Shown one piece after another: positions 956-64,000 of a DNA stretch of 64,000 bases. Under the pieces are notes generated by a model. The model saw nothing but the letters and a program-made list of their open reading frames with translations, ran no database searches and was not told the DNA's origin. The translations under genes were made by a program, and so were the position numbers. Source of the stretch: Candidatus Lambdaproteobacteria bacterium (GTDB taxonomy: Bacteria > SAR324 > JACQKK01); contig JACQKK010000005.1 in the NCBI GenBank assembly GCA_016204605.1, positions 3,802 to 67,801 on the forward strand, in the 5' to 3' direction. Every line of letters starts with the position of its first letter. Within the stretch, counting starts at the first letter, position 1.

Positions 956-1718
956 CGTCGCCCTCCAGCACCTCGAGGATGCGCTGCTTGAGTCGCAGCG
1001 TCTCGCCGGTGCGCTCGCGCAGCTCGTGGGGCACGTCGAGCGGGAACACATCGACGATGCGGCCCGGGCGCGCCGAGAGCACCACGATCCGCGTCGAGAG
1101 CGCGATCGCCTCCTCCACGTCGTGGGTCACCAGCAGCACGGTCTGCCCGAACTCGCGCCAGACGCGCAGCAGGTGGCGGTGCAGCCGGCGGCGCGTCAGC
1201 GCATCCAGCGCCCCGAAGGGCTCGTCGAGCAGCAGGATGTTCCGCTCGCACAGCAGCGTGCGGATCAGCGCCGTGCGCTGGCGCATGCCGCCCGAAAGCT
1301 GGGCGGGGTAGTGGTCGGCGAAGCCTTCCAGCCGGAACTGCCGCACCAGCTCGCGCGCCTTGGGCTCCAGCCGCACGCGGTCGTGCGGCGACTCCAGCTC
1401 CGGGCCGAGCAGCACGTTGTCCCACAGCGTGCGCCAGGGCAGCAGCAAGTCCTTCTGCTGCATGTAGGCGATGGGCGGCCGCGCCCCAGGCGGCCGGCCG
1501 TGGATGCGTACCTGGCCGCCATCCGGGGGCTCGAGGCCGGCGAGGATGTTGAGCAGGGTCGATTTGCCCCCGCCCGAGGGACCGAGCACGCCCACGAACT
1601 CGCCCGGCGCGAGCGCGAGCGTCACCCCGGCCAGCACCGGATAGGTGCCCGCCCGCGAGGCGTACGACTTGGTGAGCGCCACCGCTTCCAGCGCGGCGGC
1701 GGACGTGCCGGCGTTCAA
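945..1718 (-). CDS. ABC transporter ATP-binding protein, NitT/TauT family (ThiZ-like candidate)
   Basis: 257-aa ORF with Walker A GPSGGGKST, signature LSGGMRQR and Walker B LLLDEPFGALD. First gene downstream of the TPP riboswitch. Confidence 0.9.
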   Translation of the reverse strand: MNAGTSAAALEAVALTKSYASRAGTYPVLAGVTLALAPGEFVGVLGPSGGGKSTLLNILAGLEPPDGGQVRIHGRPPGARPPIAYMQQKDLLLPWRTLWDNVLLGPELESPHDRVRLEPKARELVRQFRLEGFADHYPAQLSGGMRQRTALIRTLLCERNILLLDEPFGALDALTRRRLHRHLLRVWREFGQTVLLVTHDVEEAIALSTRIVVLSARPGRIVDVFPLDVPHELRERTGETLRLKQRILEVLEGDDDA

Positions 1719-1825
1719 GGGGGGCCGGGCTCGGCGAAGGCTTGCACCGGCGGGACGGCGCGCGGAACCGCGTTGCGGACGGGCTGGCCGGAGGGACTTT
1801 GCCGCACAACGGGGGGAGACTTCGC

Positions 1826-1918
1826 CACGCTTCCTCCGCCGGTGCTAACCGGATCAGGTTCTGCGGGTTTGCGGATGCGCTCCGCATCTCAGCCGGCGCC
1901 ACCGGCTCCCCGGGTGTT
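1826..1918 (-). promoter_or_regulatory. TPP (THI-box) riboswitch
   Basis: The minus strand reads GGGGAGCCGGUGGCGCCGGCUGAGAUGCGGAGCGCAUCCGCAAACCCGCAGAACCUGAUCCGGUUAGCACCGGCGGAGGAAG. It has the conserved GGGG..CUGAGA..ACCC and GAACCUGAUCCGG..AGCACCGGCGGAGGAA cores. Visible helices are GCCGG/CCGGC, UGCGGA/UCCGCA and CCGG/CCGG. It lies about 110 nt upstream of the ATPase start codon. Confidence 0.85.
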
Positions 1919-2093
1919 CAGCCATTGCCGATTCAACCACGGGCTCCCGCAGGTTGCAAGCGCGCGGGGCGGCGGGTCGTGGGTCAGATTGAACATTGGC
2001 GCTTCCGCCGGCGGCCTCACGCTCCCCGGCCCTCCCTCTGCTGGAGGAACGGAAGGAGACCCCCGAACACGTGCCAGCGACCGTGGGCAGATT

Positions 2094-2743: not shown

Positions 2744-3687
2744 ACCAGTCCTCCGCCGACTCCCGCGCGGCATCCACCTGGACCGTCGCCGCCCTGCTGA
2801 AGTGGTGCGAAGGCTACTTCCGCGAGAAGGGTCTGCCCTCGCCCCGCCTCGATGGGGAGCTGCTGCTCGCCCACGTGCTGGGGCTGCGTCGCCTGGACCT
2901 CTACCTCCAGTTCGACCGGCCGCTGACGCAGGCGGAGCTGGCGGCGTTCCGGCCGCTGGTGCAGGCGCGGGCGGCCCGCCGGCCCGTGGCCTACCTCACC
3001 GGCGAGGCGGGCTTCTGGGGCCTGACCCTGGCCGTGCGCCCCGGCTGCCTGGTGCCCCGCCCCGACACCGAGACGCTGGTCGAGGCCGCGCTGGGGGCGA
3101 TCGCGGCCCTGCGCGCCGCCATGGCCGTGCCAACGGGCAATCCTGAGGCGCCCCTGACGCTGGTCGAGCTGGGGACGGGCACCGGCGCCATCCCGCTCGC
3201 CCTCTGCGCCGAGACGCGGGGGCTGACCTGCGTCAGCGTCGAGCGCTCGGCCGAGGCGCTGGCCTGCGCCCGCGAGAACCGCGCCCGCCACGCCGCCCTG
3301 CTGGCGCCCCGCAGCAACGATCTCCGCCTGGTGCGCGGCGACCGCCTGGAAGCGCTCCACCCCGCCTTCCGGCCGCACCTGCTGGTCAGCAATCCCCCCT
3401 ACATCCCCAGCGCGGCCATCGCGGGGCTGGAGCCCGAGGTCGCGCAGGCGGAGCCGCGCGCCGCGCTCGATGGCGGCCCGGACGGGCTCGACTTCCACCG
3501 CAATCTGCTCGCCTTCGCGGCGGAACGCCTCGCTCCCGGCGGCCGGGTGCTGTTCGAGATCGGCCACGACCAGGCCGAGGCCGTCCGCGCCCTCGCCGCC
3601 GCGCATCCGACGCTGCGCGAGATCGAACTCCGCCGCGACCTCGCCAAGCGGCCGCGGGTGTTCCATGCGGAGAGGAGGGCGGGGTAG
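2740..3687 (+). CDS. prmC: Peptide chain release factor N5-glutamine methyltransferase
   Basis: HemK/PrmC layout with a SAM-binding loop ELGTGTGAIPL and the catalytic VSNPPYIP motif. In-frame TTG at 2740 overlaps the cheY-like stop (gTTGA). The start is uncertain by a few codons. Confidence 0.85.
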   Translation: MNQSSADSRAASTWTVAALLKWCEGYFREKGLPSPRLDGELLLAHVLGLRRLDLYLQFDRPLTQAELAAFRPLVQARAARRPVAYLTGEAGFWGLTLAVRPGCLVPRPDTETLVEAALGAIAALRAAMAVPTGNPEAPLTLVELGTGTGAIPLALCAETRGLTCVSVERSAEALACARENRARHAALLAPRSNDLRLVRGDRLEALHPAFRPHLLVSNPPYIPSAAIAGLEPEVAQAEPRAALDGGPDGLDFHRNLLAFAAERLAPGGRVLFEIGHDQAEAVRALAAAHPTLREIELRRDLAKRPRVFHAERRAG

Positions 3688-3790
3688 AGAGTGCGATGCG
3701 TTACGCCCCCCGGTGCGCCCCAATTAGGAACGATTTCAATAGAATTTGTAGTAGTGATCCTATGAATCTGTTCTCGGTACCTGCGACGAG

Positions 3791-4282
3791 TCAATTTCTT
3801 CGAATAACGAGGGTTCCTGCCATTATGTCGTGTAACGCTTGGCGATTCTCAGTCGCCTGCACGACGAGGAATCCAATACCGAATATCAACGCTGAAAGCA
3901 ATTTGGCGAAAAAGCGAGAGGAAGCGCGGCCAAGTGATATGCGATTGCCTGTCAAATCAGTGACTGTCAATTTCATACACATCTTTCCGAGTGTAGCCTT
4001 TCTTGTCGAGCTTTCCATTGGAGCGACGAAAACCCAGGCCAAACCGAGGCCGCAAAGCGGCTTGAGAAGCTGGCCCATCACAACTGAGAATTGGACAGAA
4101 AAAGGGTATGCAGAAAATGGGTATTCAGGCCTATATGCTTTCGGAGAGTTACCAGGAATCGATATGAATTCACCGACCAACCATGACCCAACACGATACG
4201 CAAGCGCTATTAGTGCCACGTCAATAAGAAACGCGATTGCACGTTGTTGAAAGCTCGCGTATCCGTAAGGAACCGGCTGCAT
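3791..4282 (-). CDS. RDD family membrane protein
   Basis: YASFQQRAIAFLIDVAL at the N-terminus and ATLGKMCMKLTVTDLTGNRISLGRASSRFFAKLLS...QALHDIMAGTLVI at the C-terminus match the RDD domain pattern. The gene is visibly lower in GC than its neighbours. Confidence 0.75.
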   Translation of the reverse strand: MQPVPYGYASFQQRAIAFLIDVALIALAYRVGSWLVGEFISIPGNSPKAYRPEYPFSAYPFSVQFSVVMGQLLKPLCGLGLAWVFVAPMESSTRKATLGKMCMKLTVTDLTGNRISLGRASSRFFAKLLSALIFGIGFLVVQATENRQALHDIMAGTLVIRRN

Positions 4283-4527
4283 AACATGTCCCTATGTTTC
4301 ATTCTGCCACTTGGCCCCGCGTCGGTCTTTCAGCTAACGACCCTTCACTTGTACGCATTCGGCAGGCTGGAGTCACGTGATAGGACTGCCCTGTCAAGCG
4401 CCCCAAACACCTGTTAGCAGAGTATCTTGCGCCAAACAAGACGAACGACGGAGATCGGTACCACTGCGAAAACTGAAATGAGGGGACCAGTGATCAGCTC
4501 CCTACAAGTGCGCCGCAGACGCTGACG

Positions 4528-4815
4528 CTACCCGCCCTTGATGGCGTCGCGGAGGGTACGGTTGATGCGGGTCTGCCAGCCGGCGCCGGTCGCCTTGAAG
4601 TGTTCCAGCACGTCGTGATCCAGGCGCAGGGTGACCTGCTCCTTGGTGGGGGCCTTTTGCGGGCCGCGCTCCCCCGGTTTTCGCTTCGGCAGCACGGTGA
4701 CGAGGTCGGCCGGCAGCACGTCGGCAGGCGGGCGGAAGCGGCGGATGTCGGCGCGGGTCAGCTCCCGCACCTCGCCCGCTTCATTCGTCAGGGGCTTCTC
4801 GAGTTTCTTGCGCAT
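4528..4815 (-). CDS. brnA: BrnA-type antitoxin (type II TA)
   Basis: MRKKLEKPLTNEAGEVRELTRADIRRFRP...VTLRLDHDVLEHFKATGAGWQTRINRTLRDAI. The C-terminal RHH-like signature is characteristic of BrnA. It overlaps the 3' end of brnT by 35 nt, in toxin-first order. Confidence 0.85.
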   Translation of the reverse strand: MRKKLEKPLTNEAGEVRELTRADIRRFRPPADVLPADLVTVLPKRKPGERGPQKAPTKEQVTLRLDHDVLEHFKATGAGWQTRINRTLRDAIKGG

Positions 4816-5068
4816 GGCGACGGACCTCGCGTTCGTTGGCTTTTCGGAAGCTGATGAGGCGCACCCCACCGGGGATGGGCGTGAAACAGATCACGTGCAG
4901 CCGGTTGCCCAGATGGCCGATAGCCACGAACCGGCGTTCCGTGTAGGCCCGGCGGGTGTCTTCCCGGTATGTCGCGGTCTCCCACTCGAATTCGGCTGCC
5001 AGGACGTACGGCAGGTCGCGCTCCAGGGCGTTCCGCTCGCTCTTGGCCGGATCGAATTCGATCTTCAC
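4781..5068 (-). CDS. brnT: BrnT-type toxin (DUF497 family)
   Basis: MKIEFDPAKSERNALERDLPY...RFVAIGHLGNRLHVICFTPIPGGVRLISFRKANEREV is the typical BrnT pattern. GTG start at 5068. Confidence 0.85.
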   Translation of the reverse strand: MKIEFDPAKSERNALERDLPYVLAAEFEWETATYREDTRRAYTERRFVAIGHLGNRLHVICFTPIPGGVRLISFRKANEREVRRHAQETREAPDE

Positions 5069-47498: not shown

Positions 47499-47783
47499 AT
47501 GCGGATCGAGTTCGACCTGGCCAAGCGGACGATAACGCTCAAGAATCGCGGCTTGGATTTTCGGGATGCCGAGCACGTGCTTGCCGGGGAACAGTTTACG
47601 TTCCAAGACCTTCGCCAGGACTATGGTGAGCCCAGGTTCATCACCATCGGGTACCTCGATGAGCGGATAGTCGTTATCGGATGGACGCCGCGCAAACACG
47701 ACGGGGAAACCGTGTGCCGGGTGTTTTCCATGAGGAAAGCCAGTGAAAAAGAAATCGCGCGCTTTCAAGAGCGACTTCGCTAA
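47499..47783 (+). CDS. brnT: BrnT-type toxin (DUF497 family), second copy
   Basis: MRIEFDLAKRTITLKNRGLDFRDAEHVLAG...RFITIGYLDERIVVIGWTPR...RVFSMRKASEKE. Confidence 0.85.
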   Translation: MRIEFDLAKRTITLKNRGLDFRDAEHVLAGEQFTFQDLRQDYGEPRFITIGYLDERIVVIGWTPRKHDGETVCRVFSMRKASEKEIARFQERLR

Positions 47784-48078
47784 AGTCGACGCCACCCGCG
47801 GTATGCCGGACGAGGAGTTGCCGGAAATCACCGACGACATGCTGGACCGCGCCGTGTATAGCGTCGGCGGCACCGTGCTGCCCACACCACGCCGAAGGGG
47901 GCGTCCCTCGGGCACCGGCAAGAAGGTAGCCACCACGATCCGTTTCGACCGCGACGTGGTCGCAGGCTTTCGCGCCCTCGGTCGCGGCTGGCAGACGCGG
48001 ATGAACGAAGCCCTGCGCGACTGGCTCAGCACTCATGAGGGTGAAACCAAGCCCCGGCAGACCCCTCGCGCGGGGTAG
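47743..48078 (+). CDS. brnA: BrnA-type antitoxin, second copy
   Basis: ...KKVATTIRFDRDVVAGFRALGRGWQTRMNEALRDWL. Overlaps brnT by 41 nt. Confidence 0.85.
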   Translation: MKKKSRAFKSDFAKVDATRGMPDEELPEITDDMLDRAVYSVGGTVLPTPRRRGRPSGTGKKVATTIRFDRDVVAGFRALGRGWQTRMNEALRDWLSTHEGETKPRQTPRAG

Positions 48079-48222
48079 GGTTCACCCTGTCAGGGGCGCC
48101 AACGCCAGGTTAGGTCTGCCAATTCCCCATGCAATACATGGCCGAAGCGCGCCGCAAAAGGAAAGTCAATAAATCAGAATCTTACAGTGTCCCCGCGCGG
48201 CGGATTCGCGATCTGCACCTGC

Positions 48223-48531
48223 TCACGCGCTGGCCCGCGCCGGCCGCACTTCCCTGCGGATGCGCGAGCCATGGGCCTTGCGCTCGATCTGCAGATCGTA
48301 CTCCGCCTGATTCTGTAGCCAGTACGCGGCGGGCCAGCCGAACAGGGCTTCCAGGCGCAGGGCGGTCTCGGGCGTGATGGTGCGCTGTCCCTTGACGATC
48401 TGGGTGATGCGGTTGGCGGGCACTCCCAGGCGCCGCGCCGCCTCCGCCCGGCTCATGGCCAGCGGCTTCATGAACTCCTCCTCCAGCATCACCCCCGGCG
48501 CCACCGGCGCCACAGCCCGTCTCGTCTTCAT
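48223..48531 (-). CDS. higA: HigA-family antitoxin (XRE-type HTH)
   Basis: VMLEEEFMKPLAMSRAEAARRLGVPANRITQIVKGQRTITPETALRLEALFGWPAAYWLQNQAEYDL. Confidence 0.88.
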   Translation of the reverse strand: MKTRRAVAPVAPGVMLEEEFMKPLAMSRAEAARRLGVPANRITQIVKGQRTITPETALRLEALFGWPAAYWLQNQAEYDLQIERKAHGSRIRREVRPARASA

Positions 48532-48542
48532 CGCGTCCCGTC

Positions 48543-48824
48543 CTATCGGTGGTAGTCCACGATTTCTACGTCGTACGCCCCGTCGTCGCGCCACTCGAAG
48601 CAGATGCGCCACTGGTCGTTGATGCGGATGGACCATTGTCCTTCCCGGTCGCCGTGGAGCTTCTCCAACCGGTTGCCCGGCGGAATATTCAAGTCCGATA
48701 CCCTGCCGGCCAGGTGCATCTGGTAGAGCTTGCGCGCGGCCGGCGCGGCGATGGCCCGGAACCGCCGCACCGGCTCCCCCGCGGCCAGCGTCTCCGTATC
48801 CTTGTCCGCAAAGCTCCAGATCAT
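48543..48824 (-). CDS. higB: HigB-type toxin (RelE/ParE superfamily, killer protein)
   Basis: MIWSFADKDTETLAAGEPVRRFRAIAAPAARKLYQMHLAGRVSDLNIPPGNRLEKLHGDREGQWSIRINDQWRICFEW. Confidence 0.88.
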   Translation of the reverse strand: MIWSFADKDTETLAAGEPVRRFRAIAAPAARKLYQMHLAGRVSDLNIPPGNRLEKLHGDREGQWSIRINDQWRICFEWRDDGAYDVEIVDYHR

Positions 48825-48843
48825 GGTGCGCCCGGTTTTCCCC

Positions 48844-48872
48844 ACGCTATGACGCCGGACGTCACGTGTCAA
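48844..48872 (-). promoter_or_regulatory. Putative higBA promoter with an operator palindrome in the spacer
   Basis: Gene orientation reads TTGACA cgTGACGTCCGGCGTCA TAGCGT. The spacer is 17 nt. The 15-nt palindrome TGACG-nnnnn-CGTCA (48850-48864) fills it. Confidence 0.5.
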
Positions 48873-48923
48873 TGGGCCGATCGGTGCAACGTCTGCGTCC
48901 GCGGCGTCGGGCGAACTGCCGCC

Positions 48924-50264
48924 TCACAGCAAGGTTCCCCGCAGCAGCACCTGGGCCAGGCCGAAGTAGATGACGACGCCGAAGACGTCGACCAGGGTGG
49001 CGACGAAGGGGGCGGAGGCGGTGGCGGGGTCGAGCTTGAGGCGGCGCAAGAGGAAGGGCAGCATGGAGCCGATCATGGTGCCCCAGGCCACCACGCCGAT
49101 TAGGCTCAGGCCGACCGTGGCGGCGAGCAGGGCGAAGTGCTCGCCGTAGGAGCCGAACAGGCCTTGCCAGAGCACGATGCGCAGGAGACCGAGCACGGCG
49201 AGCACGGCGCCGAGCGCCAGCCCGGCCGCCAGCTCGCGGCGCAGCACCAGCCACCAGTGGGCGATGCGCACCTCCCCCAGGGCCATGGCGCGGATGATGA
49301 GGGTGGTGGCCTGGGAGCCGGCGTTGCCGCCGCTGGAGATGATGAGCGGGATGAACAGGGCCAGCACCACGGCGCGGGCCAGCTCGGCTTCGAAGTAGCC
49401 CATCGCGCTGGCGGTGAGCAGCTCGCCGAGGAACAGCACGGCCAGCCAGCCGCCGCGCTTGCGCACCATGCTCAGCAGGCCGGTGTACATGTACGGGCGT
49501 TCGAGGGCCGCCAGCCCGCCCATGCGCTGCATGTCGCGGGTGACATCCTCCTGCATGGCCTGCATCACGTCGTCGGCGGTGACGATGCCCTGCATGCAGC
49601 CCTGCGCGTCGACGACCGGCAGGGCCATCAGGCTGTTGCGGGTCATCAGGCGCGCCACGCGGCGCTGGTGCACGGTGGGGGAGACGGAGATCACCTTGGT
49701 GTGCATGACCTCGCTCACGCGGCTCGTGCTGGGCGCGGTGAACAGCGTGCGGAAGGAGACCACCCCCAGCAGATGCTGCCCGCGATCGAGGGCGTAGGCG
49801 TAGTAGACCGATTCCAGCGGCTCGTGGAATTGGCGGCGCAGGTAGCGGATCGCCTCGTCCACGGTGGCCTCGGGCCGCACCCGCGCGAAACGGGGGCTCA
49901 TCAGCCCGCCGGCGGCGTCCTCGGCATAGGAGAGCAGCCCCAGCACGTCGGCGCGCGTCGTGTCGTCGAGCAGGGCCAGCAGCTCCGCGCGCTCGGGCTC
50001 CTCGACCTCCTGCAGCACGTCCACGGCATCGTCGGGCGCGAGCGTGCGCATCCAGATGCGCCGCTCGCGGGGCGGCAGCGTGCGGATCAGCTTGGCCTGG
50101 TCCCGCGGGCTGAGCCACTGGAAGAAGTCGTCCGCCTCCTCCCGCGAGAGCTGGCCGAAGCCCTGCACGCGCTGGTCGGCGGTGAGGATGGGCCAGATTT
50201 CCTGGAGCAGGTCCGCCGAGAGCTCCTCCTGGGCGATCTCGGGCGTCGGTTGCTGATCGGGCAT
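48924..50264 (-). CDS. mgtE: Magnesium transporter MgtE
   Basis: N-domain, CBS pair (GGLMSPRFARVRPEATVDEA...LPVVDAQGCMQGIVTADDV) and the TM domain IPLIISSGGNAGSQ...PFVATLVDV. Confidence 0.92.
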   Translation of the reverse strand: MPDQQPTPEIAQEELSADLLQEIWPILTADQRVQGFGQLSREEADDFFQWLSPRDQAKLIRTLPPRERRIWMRTLAPDDAVDVLQEVEEPERAELLALLDDTTRADVLGLLSYAEDAAGGLMSPRFARVRPEATVDEAIRYLRRQFHEPLESVYYAYALDRGQHLLGVVSFRTLFTAPSTSRVSEVMHTKVISVSPTVHQRRVARLMTRNSLMALPVVDAQGCMQGIVTADDVMQAMQEDVTRDMQRMGGLAALERPYMYTGLLSMVRKRGGWLAVLFLGELLTASAMGYFEAELARAVVLALFIPLIISSGGNAGSQATTLIIRAMALGEVRIAHWWLVLRRELAAGLALGAVLAVLGLLRIVLWQGLFGSYGEHFALLAATVGLSLIGVVAWGTMIGSMLPFLLRRLKLDPATASAPFVATLVDVFGVVIYFGLAQVLLRGTLL

Positions 50265-50560
50265 GGGTGCTCCCTGGCGATCTGCCGTGCCGGTTCGGAT
50301 ATCCGCCGACGTGAGGCGCCGTCGGCGCCGCCTGTGAGTTTGTAAGCAAACGTCCCGCTTCTTCTATCCGTTCCGTGGTCGAATGGGGAGTGGGGAAGGT
50401 CACCCGCCTGCCGAGATGCTGCCGCGCCGCTGGGATGGCCCGCCGTATTCCCGACCGCGCTCGAAGCCTGGCGACTGCCCGCCGCGGCCGGGCTGCCGCT
50501 GTGCATGCCCGCCGAAGGGCTGTGGCCATGGCGCCGGGCGCGAGCCCCGAGGGCGTGGTG

Positions 50561-50749
50561 CTGTTCCGGATGCTGCTGCTGGCCCAGGCGCAGCGCCAGC
50601 ACAGCGATCCGCGCCGGCCCGACGGCCTGGATCGCCTGCTGCGCCGGATGATGGTCACGCCCGACACGCACCGCGTCCATCGGTCCGTGGTGCGGCAGGA
50701 GACCGATGCCAACTTTGCCACGGTGCTGAGCCTGTGGGATCGTAACGGC
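50561..50749 (+). pseudogene. C-terminal fragment of a fatty-acid hydroxylase / sterol-desaturase-family gene
   Basis: ...QRQHSDPRRPDGLDRLLRRMMVTPDTHRVHRSVVRQETDANFATVLSLWDR resembles the family's HSN...l..vlvTP..HrvHHs....d.NfG..lslWDr tail, but one histidine is lost (HRVHRS). The upstream two-thirds of the protein is absent. Confidence 0.4.
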
Positions 50750-50894
50750 GTGACGTTGCGTAGGGTTCGCCCCGGCAGACCATCCGCAGCGGGCTGCCGG
50801 CATACCGCGAGCCCGCGCAGGTCACGCGGCCCCGGCTGCTGCTGATGCCGTTCCGGCCCGCTGCGGCGGAGCCGCCACCCCGACAGGAGAGCCG

Positions 50895-51919
50895 ATGAGG
50901 TCGCGCCGACTGCTCCGCGTGGTCGTGCTGCTCGTGCTGGCGGCCGGGATCGCCCTGGTGATCGCCAACCGCGGGGCGTTTGCGCTGCCCCGGCTCGAGG
51001 CCACGCTGGAGAACCTCGGGCCGTGGGCGCACGTGGCCTACGTGGCGTTCTGGATCGTCGCACCGGTGCTGTTCATCCCCGGCGGGCCGATCACCCTCGC
51101 GGGCGGCGCGCTGTTCGGGTTCGCGCTCGGCACCCTCTATACGATCCTCGGCGCGACCGCGGGGGCCACCCTCGCGTTCCTGGCGGGGCGTTACTTGGCC
51201 CGGGAATGGGTCGAGCGCAGGGTGAGCGGCATGCTGGCCAGGATCAAGGAGGGCGTCGAAGGGGAGGGCTGGCGATTCGTGGCCTTCGTGCGGCTGGTGC
51301 CGCTGTTCCCCTTCAACGCCCTCAACTATGCGCTGGGGCTCACGCGCATACCGCTGCGCACGTATGTGCTCACGTCGCTGGTGTGCATGCTGCCGGGCAC
51401 GGCGGGCTATGCCTACCTGGGGGCGTTCGGCCGGGATGCGCTCACGGGCGGGGCGAACCTCGTGCAGAAGGGGCTGCTCGCGCTCGGCGTGTTCGCGGCG
51501 CTGGTGTTCCTGCCCCTGTTTCTGCGGCGCCTGCGGGCCGGGCGCTCCGGAGCGGCTGCCCAGCCGGTTGCGGAAACCCTCCCGCCCGAGCGGCTGATCT
51601 CGCCCGCGGCGCTCCAGGCGCGGCTCGGCATGCCGGCTGGCGTGCTGGTGCTCGATGTGCGCAGCGCGGAGGAGTTCACGGGCCCCCTGGGGCACATCGC
51701 CGGGTCACGGCTGATCCCGATCGACGAGCTGACCGCGCGACTGGGCGAGCTCGAGCCCGTCCGCGGCCGACCGATCGCGCTCGTCTGAAGGACGGAGCGC
51801 CGTTCGCGCCTGGCCGTGGACGTGCTGAGCCGCGCGGGGTTCCCGCACGTGTACCTGATGACCGAAGGGCTGGAAAGCTGGGTGCAGCAGGGCCTGCCCA
51901 CCACCCGCGCCACGGAGGG

Positions 51920-51923
<4 letters not shown>
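50895..51923 (+). CDS. TVP38/TMEM64 (DedA-related, VTT-domain) membrane protein fused to a rhodanese domain. In-frame TGA at 51786-51788 read as Sec at the catalytic position
   Basis: The N-terminal 200 aa are polytopic (FIPGGPITLAGGALFG...FVRLVPLFPFNALNYALG). The C-terminal part reads LVLDVRSAEEFTGPLGHIAGSRLIPIDEL...GRPIALV-U-RTERRSRLAVDVLSRAGFPHVYLMTEGLESWVQQGLP, which is the rhodanese active-site loop (..vvyCrsG.RS..a...L...Gf..v..l.GG...W) with TGA at the Cys. The frame stays open for 45 codons to the TAG at 51921. AGGAGA SD before the ATG. Confidence 0.8.
51792..51817 (+). promoter_or_regulatory. Candidate SECIS hairpin for the rhodanese UGA
   Basis: ACGG-A-GCGC-CGUUC-GCGC-CUGG-CCGU. 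There are two 4-bp helices around an internal loop, with GU in the apical loop. It starts 4 nt after the UGA. Confidence 0.4.
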
Positions 51924-53032
<1,109 letters not shown>

Positions 53033-56329: not shown

Positions 56330-57253
56330 TCAAGGCAGGCCGCGGGCGCGGAGGAGCCGCAGCAACGCGTCGACCTGCGCCTCGACCCCGTGTTCGGCCG
56401 GCACGATGGCGCCGCCGGAGGCGGGCGGGGCCGCCAGCAGGGCGTCGATGCGCGCCTCGGGCGGCAGCGCCGGGTCCGCGGCGGGCAGGCGCCTGACGCG
56501 CGGGACAGGGTCGCGCAGCCGCACCTCCCCGGCCAAGGGCATCTGGCCGGGCGCCGTGGCCAGCCGGATCGACGCCGTGCGGCTCGCCAGCCACGCAGCG
56601 AGCGACGGCACGGGCTTTGGCGCCGGCGGCCCGGCCCAGGTGACGACCGCCGGCAGGGCGAGCTCGAGCGCCTGCCCGTAGCCCCGCTCCAGCTTGACGC
56701 GCACGCGCCAGCCGCGCGGCACCGGGGCGATCTCTTCGGCGCGGTGGGCGAAAGCGGCGCCCAGGGCGATCGCGAGGGCGGCGCCGAAGCTCTCCGTCCC
56801 GAAATCGGCGCTGCGCGCCCCGGTCAGGACCAGCGCGGGCGCCCATTCCGCCAGGGCGGCTGCGGCCGCCACGGCATGGGCGCGGGCGCGGGCGGTCGTG
56901 GGCGCCGCGGGGGGACCCGCCTCCCAAGCCGGGTTCCACACCCGGATCGCCTCGTCGGCGCCGGCGGCCAGGGCTTCGCGCAGCGTCTCCTCGTCGCCGG
57001 CGGGGCCGACCAGCAGCGCCAGCAGGCGCGGCGCGGGCGGCGGCAGGCGTTCGCGCAAGGCCAGCGCGGCGCCGAGCGCGGCCGCGGCCGCGGGGTCGGT
57101 CACGCGGATCGCCTCCTCCCCGCGCACGCCGACGCCCTGCGGGCCCAACCGGATCGGCACCCTGGGGCTCGCCACCCGCGCCAGGCACACGGCGAGGGGC
57201 GGCGGCGGGCGATCGCGGGAGGGCACGGAGCGAGATGGCACAGAGCGGGACAC
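56330..57253 (-). CDS. Electron-transfer-flavoprotein beta-subunit-like protein (divergent)
   Basis: The layout follows ETF-beta/FixA: AALGAALALRE...LLALLVGPAGDEETLREALAAGADEAIRV...ALVLTGARSADFGTESFGAALAIALGAAFA...LPAVVTW. The N-terminus is atypical and carries a SRSVP-SRSVP repeat. No ETF-alpha gene is nearby. Confidence 0.55.
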   Translation of the reverse strand: MSRSVPSRSVPSRDRPPPPLAVCLARVASPRVPIRLGPQGVGVRGEEAIRVTDPAAAAALGAALALRERLPPPAPRLLALLVGPAGDEETLREALAAGADEAIRVWNPAWEAGPPAAPTTARARAHAVAAAAALAEWAPALVLTGARSADFGTESFGAALAIALGAAFAHRAEEIAPVPRGWRVRVKLERGYGQALELALPAVVTWAGPPAPKPVPSLAAWLASRTASIRLATAPGQMPLAGEVRLRDPVPRVRRLPAADPALPPEARIDALLAAPPASGGAIVPAEHGVEAQVDALLRLLRARGLP

Positions 57254-60600: not shown

Positions 60601-60756
60601 GGCGCGCGGCGGGGGCGCAGGGACTTATCCGCTCCCCGTCGTGCGCGCCGTGGTTCCATCCGCCGCACCCACCGCGCCCCAGGCGCCCGCTTTGCGTGTC
60701 CGTCCCCGGTCCCGTATCGTCGAAGTATAGCCAAGACCACAAGGGAGCGATCGACC

Positions 60757-60996
60757 ATGGACACGAAAGTGGCGAAGTGGGGCAACAGCATGGGGCTGCG
60801 GCTGCCCAAGCAGATCGTGACCCAAGCCGCGCTGCATCCCGGCGACGAGGTGACGATCGAGGTGCGGGAGGGCCGGATCGTCGTCACGAAGAAGCGGCGA
60901 CCGTACACCCTCGATGAGCTGGTGAGGCAGATGCGCCCGGATCAGCAGCACGAGGAAATCGATTGGGGTCACAGCGTTGGTGAGGAATTTTCGTGA
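60757..60996 (+). CDS. MazE/AbrB (SpoVT) family antitoxin-like DNA-binding protein, no cognate toxin downstream
   Basis: MDTKVAKWGNSMGLRLPKQIVTQAALHPGDEVTIEVREGRIVVTKK is the swapped-hairpin AbrB/MazE signature. Only a 5-codon ORF (GTGAATCGCGTTCGCTGA) follows before the AT-rich restriction gene. Confidence 0.8.
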   Translation: MDTKVAKWGNSMGLRLPKQIVTQAALHPGDEVTIEVREGRIVVTKKRRPYTLDELVRQMRPDQQHEEIDWGHSVGEEFS

Positions 60997-61017
60997 ATCG
61001 CGTTCGCTGAGTTCACT

Positions 61018-61815
61018 TCATAAGCCAAGGTCTTCTAACGTCAGCCGCTTTGTGGAACTTTGGCGTTTCGCCATCCGATACCTGTCCTTCGACGACGCGA
61101 GTTGGACGATGGCTCGCCAATCAATATTTCCATCGGGGCAAAAGGACTGGATGAATTCACCAGTGAATTGGTTTATTAACTTGTTATAGGCAACGTAGAA
61201 CTCTTCATTCCGCTCCCTCGCCATATGGCCCAGCGGCCCAATAATTTTCTTATAGAAGTCGTCATCACCAGAAATCAACTCCCAGAATGGTTGTCCGCAT
61301 AGCTTCAAATAGTTCTCATTCTTCTCAGGTTTGTTGTCTCGCCCATAGCAACAACCATTCACTGCAATGATATTTGTCGTGCTCCGACCGGATCCACGGA
61401 TTCGCTTGGCTTTATTGAAATTGTCGATCAATTTCTTGATCTGACTGCTATTTCCCCAATTGGGCCCTGACTTGATCGATACAATATACTCTATGCCATC
61501 CCGCCCGAATTCAAGGTCAATCCCTTCAGCGGAAGACTTATGGCCGTGGAATACTCGGCCACACACAAAGATCGCAAGTTCCTCTAGGAAGGTTCCAAAT
61601 GCCGTTTCCTCACTGGACGACAAGTGGGCATCGACGATGCTACGCACGAACTGCTCTGCGGTCGTGATATTCTTGGCTCGGAATAAGTAACTATTCTTAC
61701 GCTGTATCAATTTTTGCAACTCAAGTGCCTGAACGCTCTCCAGCCGCTTCCTATGGAATAGAGAGATATTCTCCTCAACAAATTTAATAATTTCGTCGTC
61801 ATTGATGCCAGTCAT
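61018..61815 (-). CDS. Probable type II restriction endonuclease (AT-rich gene)
   Basis: 265 aa, translationally coupled to the methyltransferase (TAA-a-ATG). It has a PD-(D/E)xK-like stretch GIDLEF...IEYIVSIKSGPNWGNSSQ. I believe it resembles Eco47II/PmeII-type enzymes, but I cannot verify that. Confidence 0.6.
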   Translation of the reverse strand: MTGINDDEIIKFVEENISLFHRKRLESVQALELQKLIQRKNSYLFRAKNITTAEQFVRSIVDAHLSSSEETAFGTFLEELAIFVCGRVFHGHKSSAEGIDLEFGRDGIEYIVSIKSGPNWGNSSQIKKLIDNFNKAKRIRGSGRSTTNIIAVNGCCYGRDNKPEKNENYLKLCGQPFWELISGDDDFYKKIIGPLGHMARERNEEFYVAYNKLINQFTGEFIQSFCPDGNIDWRAIVQLASSKDRYRMAKRQSSTKRLTLEDLGL

Positions 61816-61816
61816 T

Positions 61817-62644
61817 TTACTTGCTCTCCAAGAGAGGCAATTGAATGCTGGTCAAATTCTGCTTCGCCAGCGCCACATTCTCCTCCAGCACCTCGATCCC
61901 GATGCAGTTCCGGCCCAGCTCCAGCGCGGCCACGGCGGTGGTGCCGGAGCCGAGGAAGGGGTCGAGCACCCAATCCCCAGCACGGGTGAAGAGCCGGATG
62001 AACCAGGCGGGCAGCTCCTTGGGGAAGACGGCGCTGTGGTTCCTGTTGCCGGTCTCCGTGGCCAGGTGCAGCACGTTGGTGGGGTAGGCCAGCTCCCGGC
62101 CGACCCAGCGCGAGACGTTCTTGCCGAAGCCGCTGCCGACCCGGGAGGGGTCGCGACGGCGGTCGGTGGCGCTCAGGTTCTTCAGGCGCGGTCCGGCCCA
62201 GTCGCCCATGGGCACCATCACTGCCTCCTGGTTCATGGTGAAGCTTTTCGTCTTGTTGAACTGGAGCAGGCGCTCCCAGGCGTCGCGGAAGCGGTTGGGC
62301 CACTTGCCGGGGTAGCAGTTCCGCTTGTGCCAGATGAACTCCTCCGTCCAGAGCCAGCCCTGACGGCGCATTTCCAGGATCAGCTCCAGCACATAGACGT
62401 GGCGCTCCCCGGCGACCACCTTCTCCTTGATGTTGAGGATGAAGGTGCCGCTGGGCTTGAGCACCCGCCGCAGCTCGGCCGCAATCGGGAGGAACCAGGC
62501 CACGTAGTCGTCGGGCCGGATGCCGCCGTAGGTGCGGGCGCGGCTGTCGGCATAGGGCGGCGAGGTGACGATCAGGTCGATCGAGTCGGCGGGCAGCCCG
62601 GCAAGCTTCTCCCGGCAGTCGCCCAGGATGATGCGCGATTCCAT
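61817..62644 (-). CDS. DNA methyltransferase, beta-class N4-cytosine/N6-adenine type (SPPY motif IV)
   Basis: Motif IV DLIVTSPPYADS precedes motif I VLDPFLGSGTTAVAA, which is the beta permutation. SPPY favours m4C. ATG at 62644 (MESRIILGDC). Confidence 0.85.
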   Translation of the reverse strand: MESRIILGDCREKLAGLPADSIDLIVTSPPYADSRARTYGGIRPDDYVAWFLPIAAELRRVLKPSGTFILNIKEKVVAGERHVYVLELILEMRRQGWLWTEEFIWHKRNCYPGKWPNRFRDAWERLLQFNKTKSFTMNQEAVMVPMGDWAGPRLKNLSATDRRRDPSRVGSGFGKNVSRWVGRELAYPTNVLHLATETGNRNHSAVFPKELPAWFIRLFTRAGDWVLDPFLGSGTTAVAALELGRNCIGIEVLEENVALAKQNLTSIQLPLLESK

Positions 62645-62748
62645 GGCGGCGCGGTTCCTCTTCCGTGAGTGCACTCGGGCTGCGGAGGATGTGGGGACCC
62701 CCCAGCCTCCACCCTAGCAAATCTGTCCCTGTTGGTCCACCCCCGTCT

Positions 62749-63396
62749 TTACAGTGCCCCCAGCGCCTCCTCGAACCGGGCGAGCGCGGCCACGGGATCG
62801 GGGGCGGCCCAGACGGCGGAGATGGCCGCCACCCCCCAGGCTCCGGCGGCGAGGCAGTCGCGGGCGCGGGCGGGCGTCACGCCCCCCAGCGCCAGCAGCG
62901 GGAGCGCCGTGCGGGCGGCCGCCTGCTCGAGAGCGTGCAGCCCCACCGGTGGGCCGTAGCCGGCCTTTGAGGGCGTCTCGTAGACGGGGCCGAAGGTGGC
63001 GAAGGCGGCGCCGGCGGCCTCGGCCGCCCGCACGCCCTCCGGCGAGTGGGTCGAGACGCCGTAGCGCAGCTGCGCCCGCAGCAGCGGCGCGTGGCGGGCC
63101 AACGGCAGGCTGTCTTCCCGCAGGTGCACCCCCGCCAGCCCCAGGCTCAGCGCCAGATCGGCCCGGTCGTTGAGGAACAGCGCGCAGCCGTGGCCCGCCG
63201 GCAGCGCCGCCAGCAACGCCTCGCAGAAGCGGGCCAGGTCGGCTGGCGATAAGTCCTTCTCCCTCACCTGCACCGCGCGCAGCCCCGCGGCCACGAGCCG
63301 CGGCAGCACGGTCGCCGGCGCCGGGCGCCTCGCCGCCCGGTCCGCGAGCCGGTCCGTGATCAGGTAGAAGCGGAAGGGGAGAGGCGGAGCGGCCAT
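62749..63396 (-). CDS. thiE: Thiamine-phosphate synthase
   Basis: FYLITDR...AVQVREKDLS...LFLNDRADLA...GVHLRED...GVSTHS...ATFGPVYETPSK...LALGGV follows the ThiE pattern. Confidence 0.88.
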   Translation of the reverse strand: MAAPPLPFRFYLITDRLADRAARRPAPATVLPRLVAAGLRAVQVREKDLSPADLARFCEALLAALPAGHGCALFLNDRADLALSLGLAGVHLREDSLPLARHAPLLRAQLRYGVSTHSPEGVRAAEAAGAAFATFGPVYETPSKAGYGPPVGLHALEQAAARTALPLLALGGVTPARARDCLAAGAWGVAAISAVWAAPDPVAALARFEEALGAL

Positions 63397-63460
63397 GAGG
63401 GGTCGAACACCGTTCCCTGGTCGCAGGCCGTCCGGCTGCGATTGTGTGCCGGAGTCGTTC

Positions 63461-63631
63461 TGCCTCCCCCCTTGCGGGGGAGGGCCGGGGTGAGGGCGCA
63501 GGCCCCCTCACCCCGGCGCCTACGTCGCCACCCCTCCCCCCGCGTCCGGGAGAGGGGATCGGCCACGAATTGCCACCAGAACGATCTCCCCTCTCCCGGA
63601 CGCGGGAGAGGGGCCGGGGGTGAGGGCGCGC
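63461..63631. repeat. Cluster of REP-like G-rich palindromic elements (family C)
   Basis: ctccccccttgcgggggagggccggggtgagggcgc, cccctccccccgcgtccgggagagggg and ctcccctctcccggacgcgggagaggggccgggggtgagggcgc. These are hairpins with a shared ggccgggg(g)tgagggcg tail, lying between thiG and thiE. Confidence 0.8.
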
Positions 63632-63633
63632 GC

Positions 63634-64000
63634 TTACCCTGCGCCGCCGCCGACCCGCCGCCCGTGGCGCTCACCCACCATGCCCACCGTGGGGCTGGAG
63701 GGGTCGGCGTAGGACTTGCGCGGGATGCGCCCGGCGAGGAAGGCCTTGCGACCGGCCTCGCAGCCTTGGCGCATGGCTTCGGCCATCAGCACGGGATCGC
63801 GGGCCTTGGCCACGGCGGTGTTGAGCAGCACGCCGTCGCAGCCCAGCTCCATGGCCAGCGCCACGTCGGAGGCGGTGCCGAGGCCGGCATCCACGATCAG
63901 CGGCACGGTGACCTTCTCCCGGATCAGCCGGAAGTTGTAGGGGTTCAGCACCCCCATCCCCGAGCCGATGGGCGAGCCGAGCGGCATCACCGCCACGCAC
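63634..64000 (-). CDS. thiG: Thiazole synthase (3' part; gene runs off the window)
   Basis: ...[73 protein letters not shown] is canonical ThiG. TAA stop at 63634. Confidence 0.9.

Follow-up and report, generated by a model that had tools for sequence, protein, structure and literature searches.

A VTT-rhodanese gene with an in-frame TGA at the catalytic position

We analysed a stretch of 64,000 nucleotides (nt), hereafter the window, from a Candidatus Lambdaproteobacteria bacterium (assembly GCA_016204605.1, contig JACQKK010000005.1, positions 3,802 to 67,801, forward strand). It carries a gene for a membrane protein with a VTT domain and a C-terminal rhodanese domain, in which a TGA occupies the codon of the rhodanese catalytic cysteine (Cys). 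The gene lies on the forward strand of the window, whose overall GC content is 70.5%. It starts with an ATG at 50895, 4 nt downstream of a Shine-Dalgarno-like AGGAGA recognised by sequence reading (50885–50890), and runs through 297 sense codons (50895–51785; Pfam VTT_dom 2.5e-27, hydropathy and charge) to the TGA at 51786–51788, a putative selenocysteine (Sec, U) codon. A further 44 sense codons, encoding RTERRSRLAVDVLSRAGFPHVYLMTEGLESWVQQGLPTTRATEG, lead to a TAG at 51921–51923. This second segment (51789–51923) finishes the rhodanese domain, as judged by the Pfam match, conserved positions, the ratio of nonsynonymous to synonymous substitution rates (dN/dS) and a proxy structure model. The readthrough product would be 342 amino acids (aa) long, with Sec or Cys at residue 298. 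A preliminary description of the locus, made from the letters without database searches, had correctly placed the stop at this TGA within the rhodanese active-site loop. Its statement that 45 codons stay open after the TGA stands as regards the frame, which is open to the TAG, but the sense codons number 44 and the TAG makes up the figure of 45. At this base composition (70.5% GC) we estimate a chance of about 40% for 44 codons to stay open, so the open frame alone means little and homology carries the weight. The TAG shares nucleotides with the stop codon of the ABC-ATPase gene that converges on it (51920–51922, reverse strand), and no spacer or terminator separates the two genes.

Pfam found both domains in the readthrough product, in agreement with the earlier assignment of a polytopic TVP38/TMEM64 VTT protein with a C-terminal rhodanese. 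The VTT_dom match (PF09335) covered residues 61–177 (nt 51075–51425) and profile positions 1–122 of 123, and scored 96.2 bits against a cut-off of 33.9. With Cys put at residue 298, the Rhodanese match (PF00581) covered residues 237–331 (nt 51603 to 51887) and profile positions 2–101 of 102, with 49.2 bits against a cut-off of 22.2. This match crosses the TGA and runs on to residue 331, which bears out the rhodanese homology claimed for the downstream region. The first two thirds of the domain are encoded 5' of the TGA, and PF09335 is the only domain that the precomputed annotation gives for the truncated 297-aa product. The protein is laid out as an N-terminal transmembrane helix, the VTT domain, a last transmembrane helix (192–210), a basic linker RRLRAGR and the rhodanese domain from residue 237. 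Its charge distribution, with MRSRR at the N-terminus, a basic loop at 99–127 and RRLRAGR after the last transmembrane helix, suggests by the positive-inside rule an N-in/C-in topology that would place the rhodanese domain in the cytoplasm.

The TGA falls in the column of the invariant catalytic Cys of the motif C-R-T-[DE]-[RK]-R-S of full-length homologues. The resulting loop, U-R-T-E-R-R-S, is of the six-residue sulfurtransferase type, C-X4-R followed by S or T. All six near-invariant positions after the TGA are kept (R303, L311, G315, V319, G325 and W329), and over the whole protein 65 of the 70 positions with conservation of 93% or more are retained. At least three of the five departures from near-invariant residues (H46, F76 and A142) are common to the nearest relative, P0003. 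As a structural proxy we used the AlphaFold model of a Cys orthologue, P0002, which is 57% identical to the window protein (mean pLDDT, the predicted local confidence score, 84; 92–95 in the rhodanese domain). In this model the catalytic residue lies after strand 282–285 and before helix 289–301, and the part corresponding to the post-UGA segment gives a helix, a strand and a helix of the rhodanese fold. The closest solved domain to the window rhodanese was that of BpPRF (5VE3), by sequence (E = 8e-13) and also in a fold search with the proxy model (42% identity, 1.5 A, 104 columns); the rhodanese of YgaP (2MOI) is a more distant homologue (E = 5e-5). No solved structure matched the VTT part.

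The TGA recurs across a widespread family

A database search returned 7543 homologues, most of which were full-length VTT-rhodanese Cys forms with the motif C-R-T-[DE]-[RK]-R-S. A second search, seeded with a short match, yielded about 35 protein clusters of 271–297 aa, all of which ended just before the catalytic Cys. Contig look-ups and scans of genomes and metagenomes gave 21 other TGA loci, or 22 with the window. The TGA stood at the catalytic column in all 22, and TGC or TGT stood there in the Cys forms. Although the protein clusters stop at this position with a truncated domain, the DNA of 20 of the 21 other loci continues with 41–59 conserved codons that complete the rhodanese domain. 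The fusion proposed earlier is thus widespread, and its TGA form falls into at least three clades. Of the loci sampled, about one third would have Sec as the catalytic residue. The readthrough frames of nearly all other TGA loci themselves end in TGA, which argues that UGA is a normal stop in these organisms and that only the UGA at the catalytic column is recoded.

The codons after the TGA bear the mark of purifying selection. Nei-Gojobori dN/dS over the 38 codons after the TGA was 0.07–0.58 in 14 pairs (0.21–0.58 in pairs with the window gene and 0.07–0.48 among relatives), similar to that over the 38 codons before it. The window protein and that of locus L003 are 65% identical after the TGA and 60% identical over the whole rhodanese domain. 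The active-site loops differ by clade, reading ...VVVV-U-R[TS]E[RG]RSR in clade A, ...V[PT]V-U-[KN]TE.R[SA]V in clade B and ...VTI-U-RTEKRS[AS]S in clade C. A rough neighbour-joining tree placed the window gene as sister to clade A, within a clade A+B whose members all have TGA, and the Cys forms L016 and L099 were nested in clade C. Named clade A genes come from metagenome-assembled genomes (MAGs) of 'Candidatus Lambdaproteobacteria'. The best match to the window protein in the genome-contig scan had only 49% identity. The exception among the 21 other TGA loci, L111 (6830–7070), combines a weak hairpin (-6.7 kcal/mol) with an R-L that replaces R-S in the active-site loop. Its downstream frame runs on for 80 codons without a stop, and it may be a decaying copy.

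SECIS-type hairpins in relatives

Hairpins downstream of the TGA were compared with the published model of the bacterial selenocysteine insertion sequence (SECIS), termed bSECIS, which asks for a loop of 3–9 nt with G as its first or second nucleotide, a stem of 4 bp or more, a UGA-to-loop spacing of 16–37 nt and a folding energy no higher than -7.5 kcal/mol (PMC13188914). The model was passed by 20 of the 22 TGA forms versus 4 of the 21 Cys forms (Fisher p = 2e-6, for loci that are phylogenetically non-independent). The window and L111 were the only TGA forms without a compliant hairpin. In clades B and C the spacing was 17–18 nt, with loops GUC, GGC or GGUCA, which is close to the loop position in E. 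coli fdhF. Clade A hairpins had a spacing of 33 nt, 8–9 bp and loops GUC or GUG.

The pattern of substitutions differed by clade. In clade A, 87% of cells paired in register versus 26–41% when the partner was slid, and a single pair, in L002, had changed from G-C to A-U in a truly compensatory way. Clade B shows a G-U in L121 where L007 has U-A. The third-codon positions of the clade C stem were invariant at 4 of 4 sites inside versus 2 of 13 outside; the 6-bp core of this hairpin is itself invariant and shows no covariation, so the argument for it rests on synonymous-site invariance. One of the four Cys forms that pass the model, L016 (10826–10880, from a Binataceae MAG), has TGT at the active site yet keeps the 10-bp, GGC-loop hairpin of its TGA-bearing sisters, and looks like a recent Sec-to-Cys switch with a leftover SECIS. 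Because the TGA recurs in 21 other loci, is followed by conserved coding sequence with dN/dS below 1 and is accompanied by SECIS-type hairpins, Sec is by far the best reading of the family's UGA on the sequence evidence.

Hairpins after the window TGA and a second TGA gene in the lineage

Two mutually exclusive hairpins follow the TGA of the window gene on the forward strand. Hairpin (i) (51790–51815, nt 5–30 after the U; -10.4 kcal/mol) pairs G5G6 with C29C30, C8G9G10 with C25U26G27 and G12–C15 with G21–C24, and has a bulged A11 and the loop CGUUC. It is the SECIS candidate of the preliminary description (ACGG-A-GCGC-CGUUC-GCGC-CUGG-CCGU), a proposal that is not supported: its spacing is 12 nt against the 16–37 nt required, and it competes with the minimum-free-energy hairpin at nt 16–37. 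The latter, hairpin (ii) (51801–51822), has a UGA-to-loop distance of 20 nt and an 8-bp stem (C16–G23/C30–G37); its 6-nt loop, CCUGGC, begins with CC and lacks the G that the model expects there. Its energy is -9.0 kcal/mol for the stem-loop alone and -18.6 kcal/mol with outer pairs, and it is both the minimum-free-energy and the centroid fold of the 50-nt segment. A third hairpin spans nt 36–51 (-5.7 kcal/mol). An Rfam search of 51700–51930 with E up to 10 gave no match to SECIS or any other family.

The closest MAGs by the window CarB protein (71–76% identity) are labelled SAR324 cluster or Deltaproteobacteria. GTDB puts the class of 'Candidatus Lambdaproteobacteria' in the phylum SAR324, and NCBI taxonomy holds no link between the two. 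In one relative, L173, whose CarB is 77% identical to that of the window, an operon with genes for an ArsR-type regulator with a rhodanese domain, sulfide:quinone oxidoreductase (SQR), a DsrE-like protein and FA_hydroxylase adjoins carB. Its DsrE-like gene (1202–1576, reverse strand) has a TGA at 1346–1348 where the CGSC motif has its first Cys. Past this TGA the frame stays open up to a normal C-terminus, ...KVIVF*, and the gene caller cuts the product at 76 aa. A canonical hairpin follows, with a spacing of 20 nt, 7 bp, the loop UGGUAU and -11.4 kcal/mol. Hairpin (ii) of the window has the spacing and loop length of this element, a likeness that is suggestive at most. As the L173 genome thus holds a second TGA gene, the lineage probably decodes Sec.

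Operon context and its loss in the window

In relatives the gene belongs to a conserved operon, in the order ArsR-type helix-turn-helix (HTH) plus rhodanese regulator, FA_hydroxylase, VTT-rhodanese, SHOCT, DsrE, methyltransferase and SQR-like flavoprotein. This order was found for both Sec and Cys forms, with the regulator divergent in some. The regulator, of about 225 aa, joins an ArsR/SmtB HTH domain to a rhodanese domain of its own with the loop C-R-G-P-Y-C (L003, L004, L007, L089 and most other loci). It adjoins nearly every Sec or Cys form with sufficient flank, co-directionally in clades A and B and divergently in clade C and the Cys clade. No persulfide dioxygenase (PDO) gene was seen in the operons examined. 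A second selenoprotein was sought among the neighbours in L003 and L004, where the SQR best matches a 'selenoprotein subtype' model; the candidate was rejected, as SQR, DsrE, regulator and methyltransferase all have ordinary stops there. Some Cys homologues of about 463 aa (P0026, P0036, P0057, P0063, P0081, P0085 and P0113) carry an extra C-terminal DsrE domain (PF02635).

In the window, the gene directly upstream is an FA_hydroxylase pseudogene remnant (50537–50889, forward strand; Pfam 24.2 bits, below the cut-off of 31). It retains residues ~157–274 of ~287 in two frames (50537–50761 and 50764–50889), 64% and 55% identical to the intact gene of L168. The N-terminal ~155 residues are gone, and the His box HRIHHS has become HRVHRS. 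In the relatives L168, L170 and L173 carB directly abuts the operon. In the window the interval between carB and the remnant (47743–50264) holds, all on the reverse strand, a HigB-like toxin gene (48546–48923), an overlapping HTH antitoxin-like open reading frame (ORF; 48223–48636) and mgtE (48927–50264), and this segment looks like the insertion or rearrangement by which the FA_hydroxylase gene was truncated. At carB the window is syntenic with its nearest relative, L168/L169, in which CarB is 79% and the VTT protein 76% identical and FA_hydroxylase is intact. Among the other carB-adjacent loci, L170 and L171/172 have no orthologue of the gene, and the L173 contig ends before its position. 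In the window the gene stands as an orphan, with an atypical hairpin and with operon partners that are either lost or reduced to a pseudogene.

Alternative explanations

The in-frame TGA of the window is very probably a real selenocysteine codon of a widespread, uncatalogued membrane-anchored sulfur-transfer family. Taken as a whole, the explanation that we consider probable is that the gene is by origin a member of a selenoprotein gene clade in which a VTT domain is joined to a single-domain rhodanese and the catalytic Cys is replaced by UGA-encoded Sec. That the UGA of this particular copy is currently decoded also appears likely from the evidence at hand. Several observations weigh against this explanation. 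No hairpin of the window satisfies the full bSECIS model, and of the 9 pairs of the clade A hairpin 4 are disrupted in the window. In folding energy the window segment does not stand out from shuffled sequences (z = +0.37 to +0.46). Relatives with textbook hairpins gave z = -2.65 to +0.05, so the shuffle test has low power in GC-rich 50-mers. The upstream FA_hydroxylase partner is a truncated and frameshifted remnant, and homologues of the ArsR-rhodanese regulator, DsrE, methyltransferase and SQR were not found anywhere in the window. None of the approximately 45 ORFs scanned in the 64 kb was selA, selB or selD, and no tRNA-Sec was found in the window. A promoter and terminator scan of 50200–52100 detected none, a result that is hardly informative because such a scan is weak for this kind of organism. 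In pairs with the window gene, dN/dS is slightly higher after the TGA (0.21–0.58) than before it (0.19–0.40). The VTT protein of L168/L169 stops in the linker and lacks the rhodanese domain, so this domain is dispensable in the lineage. Finally, a full-length member of the window's own subclade, in which conservation of the TGA and hairpin could be followed, was not found. The members recovered were L168 and L169 (without rhodanese), L094 (67% identity, whose contig ends after the linker just as the rhodanese domain begins) and P0007 (on an 824-nt contig).

An alternative is a relic, in which an ancestral Sec gene has a UGA that is not decoded here, because the Sec machinery was lost or the SECIS decayed. 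The product would then be a VTT protein of 297 aa whose rhodanese stub is dead, at a stage towards the state of L168. The absence of a compliant hairpin, shared among the 22 TGA forms with the possibly decaying L111 alone, the broken clade A pairs, the pseudogenised neighbour and missing partners, the deletion of the rhodanese domain in L168 and L169 and the lack of sel genes within 64 kb all fit such a history. We nevertheless regard it as unlikely. The 44 downstream codons contain no frameshift or stop and keep every near-invariant residue, identity to L003 is as high after the TGA as over the whole domain and dN/dS stays below 1. Any loss would need to be very recent. Moreover, a related organism appears to decode another TGA gene, the DsrE-like gene of L173, and bacterial SECIS elements are diverse, with some genuine ones failing the consensus model (PMC13188914). 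A change private to this genome, either a nonsense mutation that turned the TGC of a Cys-type gene into TGA or an error of sequencing or assembly in such a gene, would take a single base and could leave a 44-codon open frame by chance at 70% GC. It was rejected as extremely improbable: the window gene sits within a clade in which all members have TGA here, the stop position is common to 21 other loci and about 35 protein clusters, and an independent hit at the same codon in a lineage nested among TGA forms is very unlikely. Purifying selection downstream shows continued translation and not the identity of the inserted residue, which would leave room for recoding of the UGA other than as Sec, by near-cognate insertion of Trp, Cys or Arg or by lineage-specific reassignment. 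This, too, is highly improbable. The column is that of an invariant catalytic Cys, a classic Cys/Sec pair; the hairpins fit a SelB-type SECIS model in position and loop; and Sec-rhodaneses are, like the DsrE-like UxxC proteins, recognised selenoprotein families. Reassignment of the codon was rejected outright, since most of the readthrough ORFs end at a second TGA.

Other features of the window

Two low-GC islands (3501–4750 and 60751–62000; 46–58% versus 70.5% overall) adjoin a BrnA-type antitoxin gene (4531–4890, reverse strand) and an N6/N4 DNA methylase gene (61820–62713, reverse strand), and were probably acquired horizontally. A thiamine pyrophosphate (TPP) riboswitch (1813–1922, reverse strand; 70 bits) precedes the ATPase and permease genes of an ABC transporter (948–1844 and 47–1126), and genes for ThiG and TMP-TENI lie at the other end of the window (62752–63999). 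The segment 56126–58507 contains no ORF with a coding-like GC content at third codon positions. A 90-nt 'tRNA-Pro(tgg)' reported by ARAGORN at 56864–56953 is most likely a false positive, as it is extremely GC-rich and the Rfam tRNA model gave no match.

Proposed function

The best-supported function for the family, to judge from gene context and homology, is that of a relay for sulfane sulfur close to the membrane, in a response to sulfide or reactive sulfur. This proposal draws on the SQR, DsrE/TusD-like and ArsR-rhodanese partners, the fused DsrE domain, and the published SQR-operon rhodaneses and YgaV-YgaP system. Given SelA, SelB, SelC and SelD, SelB bound to a hairpin 12–20 nt after the UGA would bring Sec-tRNA to the ribosome, and the 342-aa protein would be made. 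Its Sec would take up sulfane sulfur as a selenosulfide (Se-S-) and hand it on. The likely source would be the polysulfide or persulfide that SQR generates at the membrane, and the likely acceptors DsrE/TusD-like carriers or thiols. The relay would form part of the response controlled by the ArsR-rhodanese regulator. In this scheme the VTT domain may act as an anchor, or as a transporter of a sulfur anion or a lipid.

The preliminary description had instead raised selenium trafficking, by way of a link between DedA proteins and selenite. The context does not favour it, as the ArsR-rhodanese regulator, DsrE, SQR and methyltransferase point to sulfide and sulfane sulfur. For DedA proteins the literature leans towards flipping of lipids or undecaprenyl phosphate, and it describes the connection of the rhodanese fusion as 'unclear' (PMC10127716). 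A broader version, which we consider improbable, would make the VTT-Sec-rhodanese a dedicated membrane-coupled chalcogen device. Its VTT domain would move an oxyanion of selenium or sulfur, or else a species linked to lipid, across the membrane or along it, and Sec would capture this cargo directly as a Se-Se or Se-S adduct and deliver it to DsrE-type carriers or SelD.

Gene callers cut all members of the clade at the UGA and label them 'VTT domain-containing protein', which makes the selenoprotein family invisible in annotation. In this family a Sec enzyme would be joined to a polytopic membrane part, within a conserved sulfide-responsive operon, and in some genomes that operon holds a second, DsrE-like selenoprotein. 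The interleaved Cys and Sec forms, together with the apparent Sec-to-Cys switch, form a natural series in which to ask what selenium buys a rhodanese. The family also lets one ask what a DedA/TVP38-type domain does beside sulfur-transfer chemistry. The window adds a case in which the operon has been dismantled in various ways within one lineage, the relative having lost the rhodanese domain and the window its partners.

Comparison with known systems

Both halves of this architecture have precedents. Sec rhodanese-like families, 'forms 1-5', have been predicted (PMC13188914, PMC9312934) and were first seen in the Sargasso Sea survey (PMC1088965). These families, together with NF041203 (rhodanese_LYCAU) and NF045694 (TsoB), likewise have a PF00581 domain with UGA or Sec in the active-site region. 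The predicted families were found through Cys/Sec pairs and bSECIS elements, and their function is uncharacterised, as here. The catalogued motifs are UxxS, UxxG, CxU and UxxxxU, in contrast to U-[RKNQ]-[TGSA]-[EQ]-x-R-[SA] in the window family, and none of the catalogued forms is described as fused to a VTT or DedA domain. The window protein is not a member of NF041203 (23 bits versus a cut-off of 115), the one curated model of a rhodanese selenoprotein to which it showed a weak match. DedA-rhodanese fusions have also been noted (PMC10127716), and combine PF09335, with predicted re-entrant loops, with PF00581 as in the window family. That remark concerns Cys proteins of the COG0586 subfamily, while the Joint Genome Institute (JGI) label for the window family is YdjX (TVP38/TMEM64), and it describes no Sec form, operon context or function for the fusions. 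Sec-rhodaneses and DedA-rhodanese fusions are thus known separately. For the VTT-fused Sec-rhodanese no curated model or paper was found in NCBIfam and the literature searched, including the searchable review catalogues, in line with the earlier remark that no characterised Sec example of the architecture was at hand.

The operon recalls YgaV-YgaP of E. coli, in which an ArsR/SqrR/BigR-type regulator adjoins an inner-membrane rhodanese with a cytoplasmic catalytic domain and sulfide relieves repression of the operon. In YgaP the rhodanese domain is N-terminal and is followed by a two-helix C-terminal anchor; the protein lacks a VTT domain and uses Cys. The window protein has the reverse domain order and a VTT membrane part of about 215 residues, and only the rhodanese domains are homologous; moreover, the regulator of the window family carries its own rhodanese domain, unlike YgaV.

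With the rhodaneses of SQR-PDO operons (BpPRF, 5VE3; SQR-rhodanese fusions, PMC9163753) the window family has the association with SQR in common. A role in handling the sulfane sulfur made by SQR has been proposed for them (PMC9163753). The fusion partner is PDO or SQR in those proteins and a membrane VTT domain in the window family. The DsrE-like UxxC proteins (PF02635), a recognised selenoprotein family, occur in the same family of operons, as in L173, and their domain is sometimes fused to the Cys form of the VTT-rhodanese; they constitute a distinct protein family.

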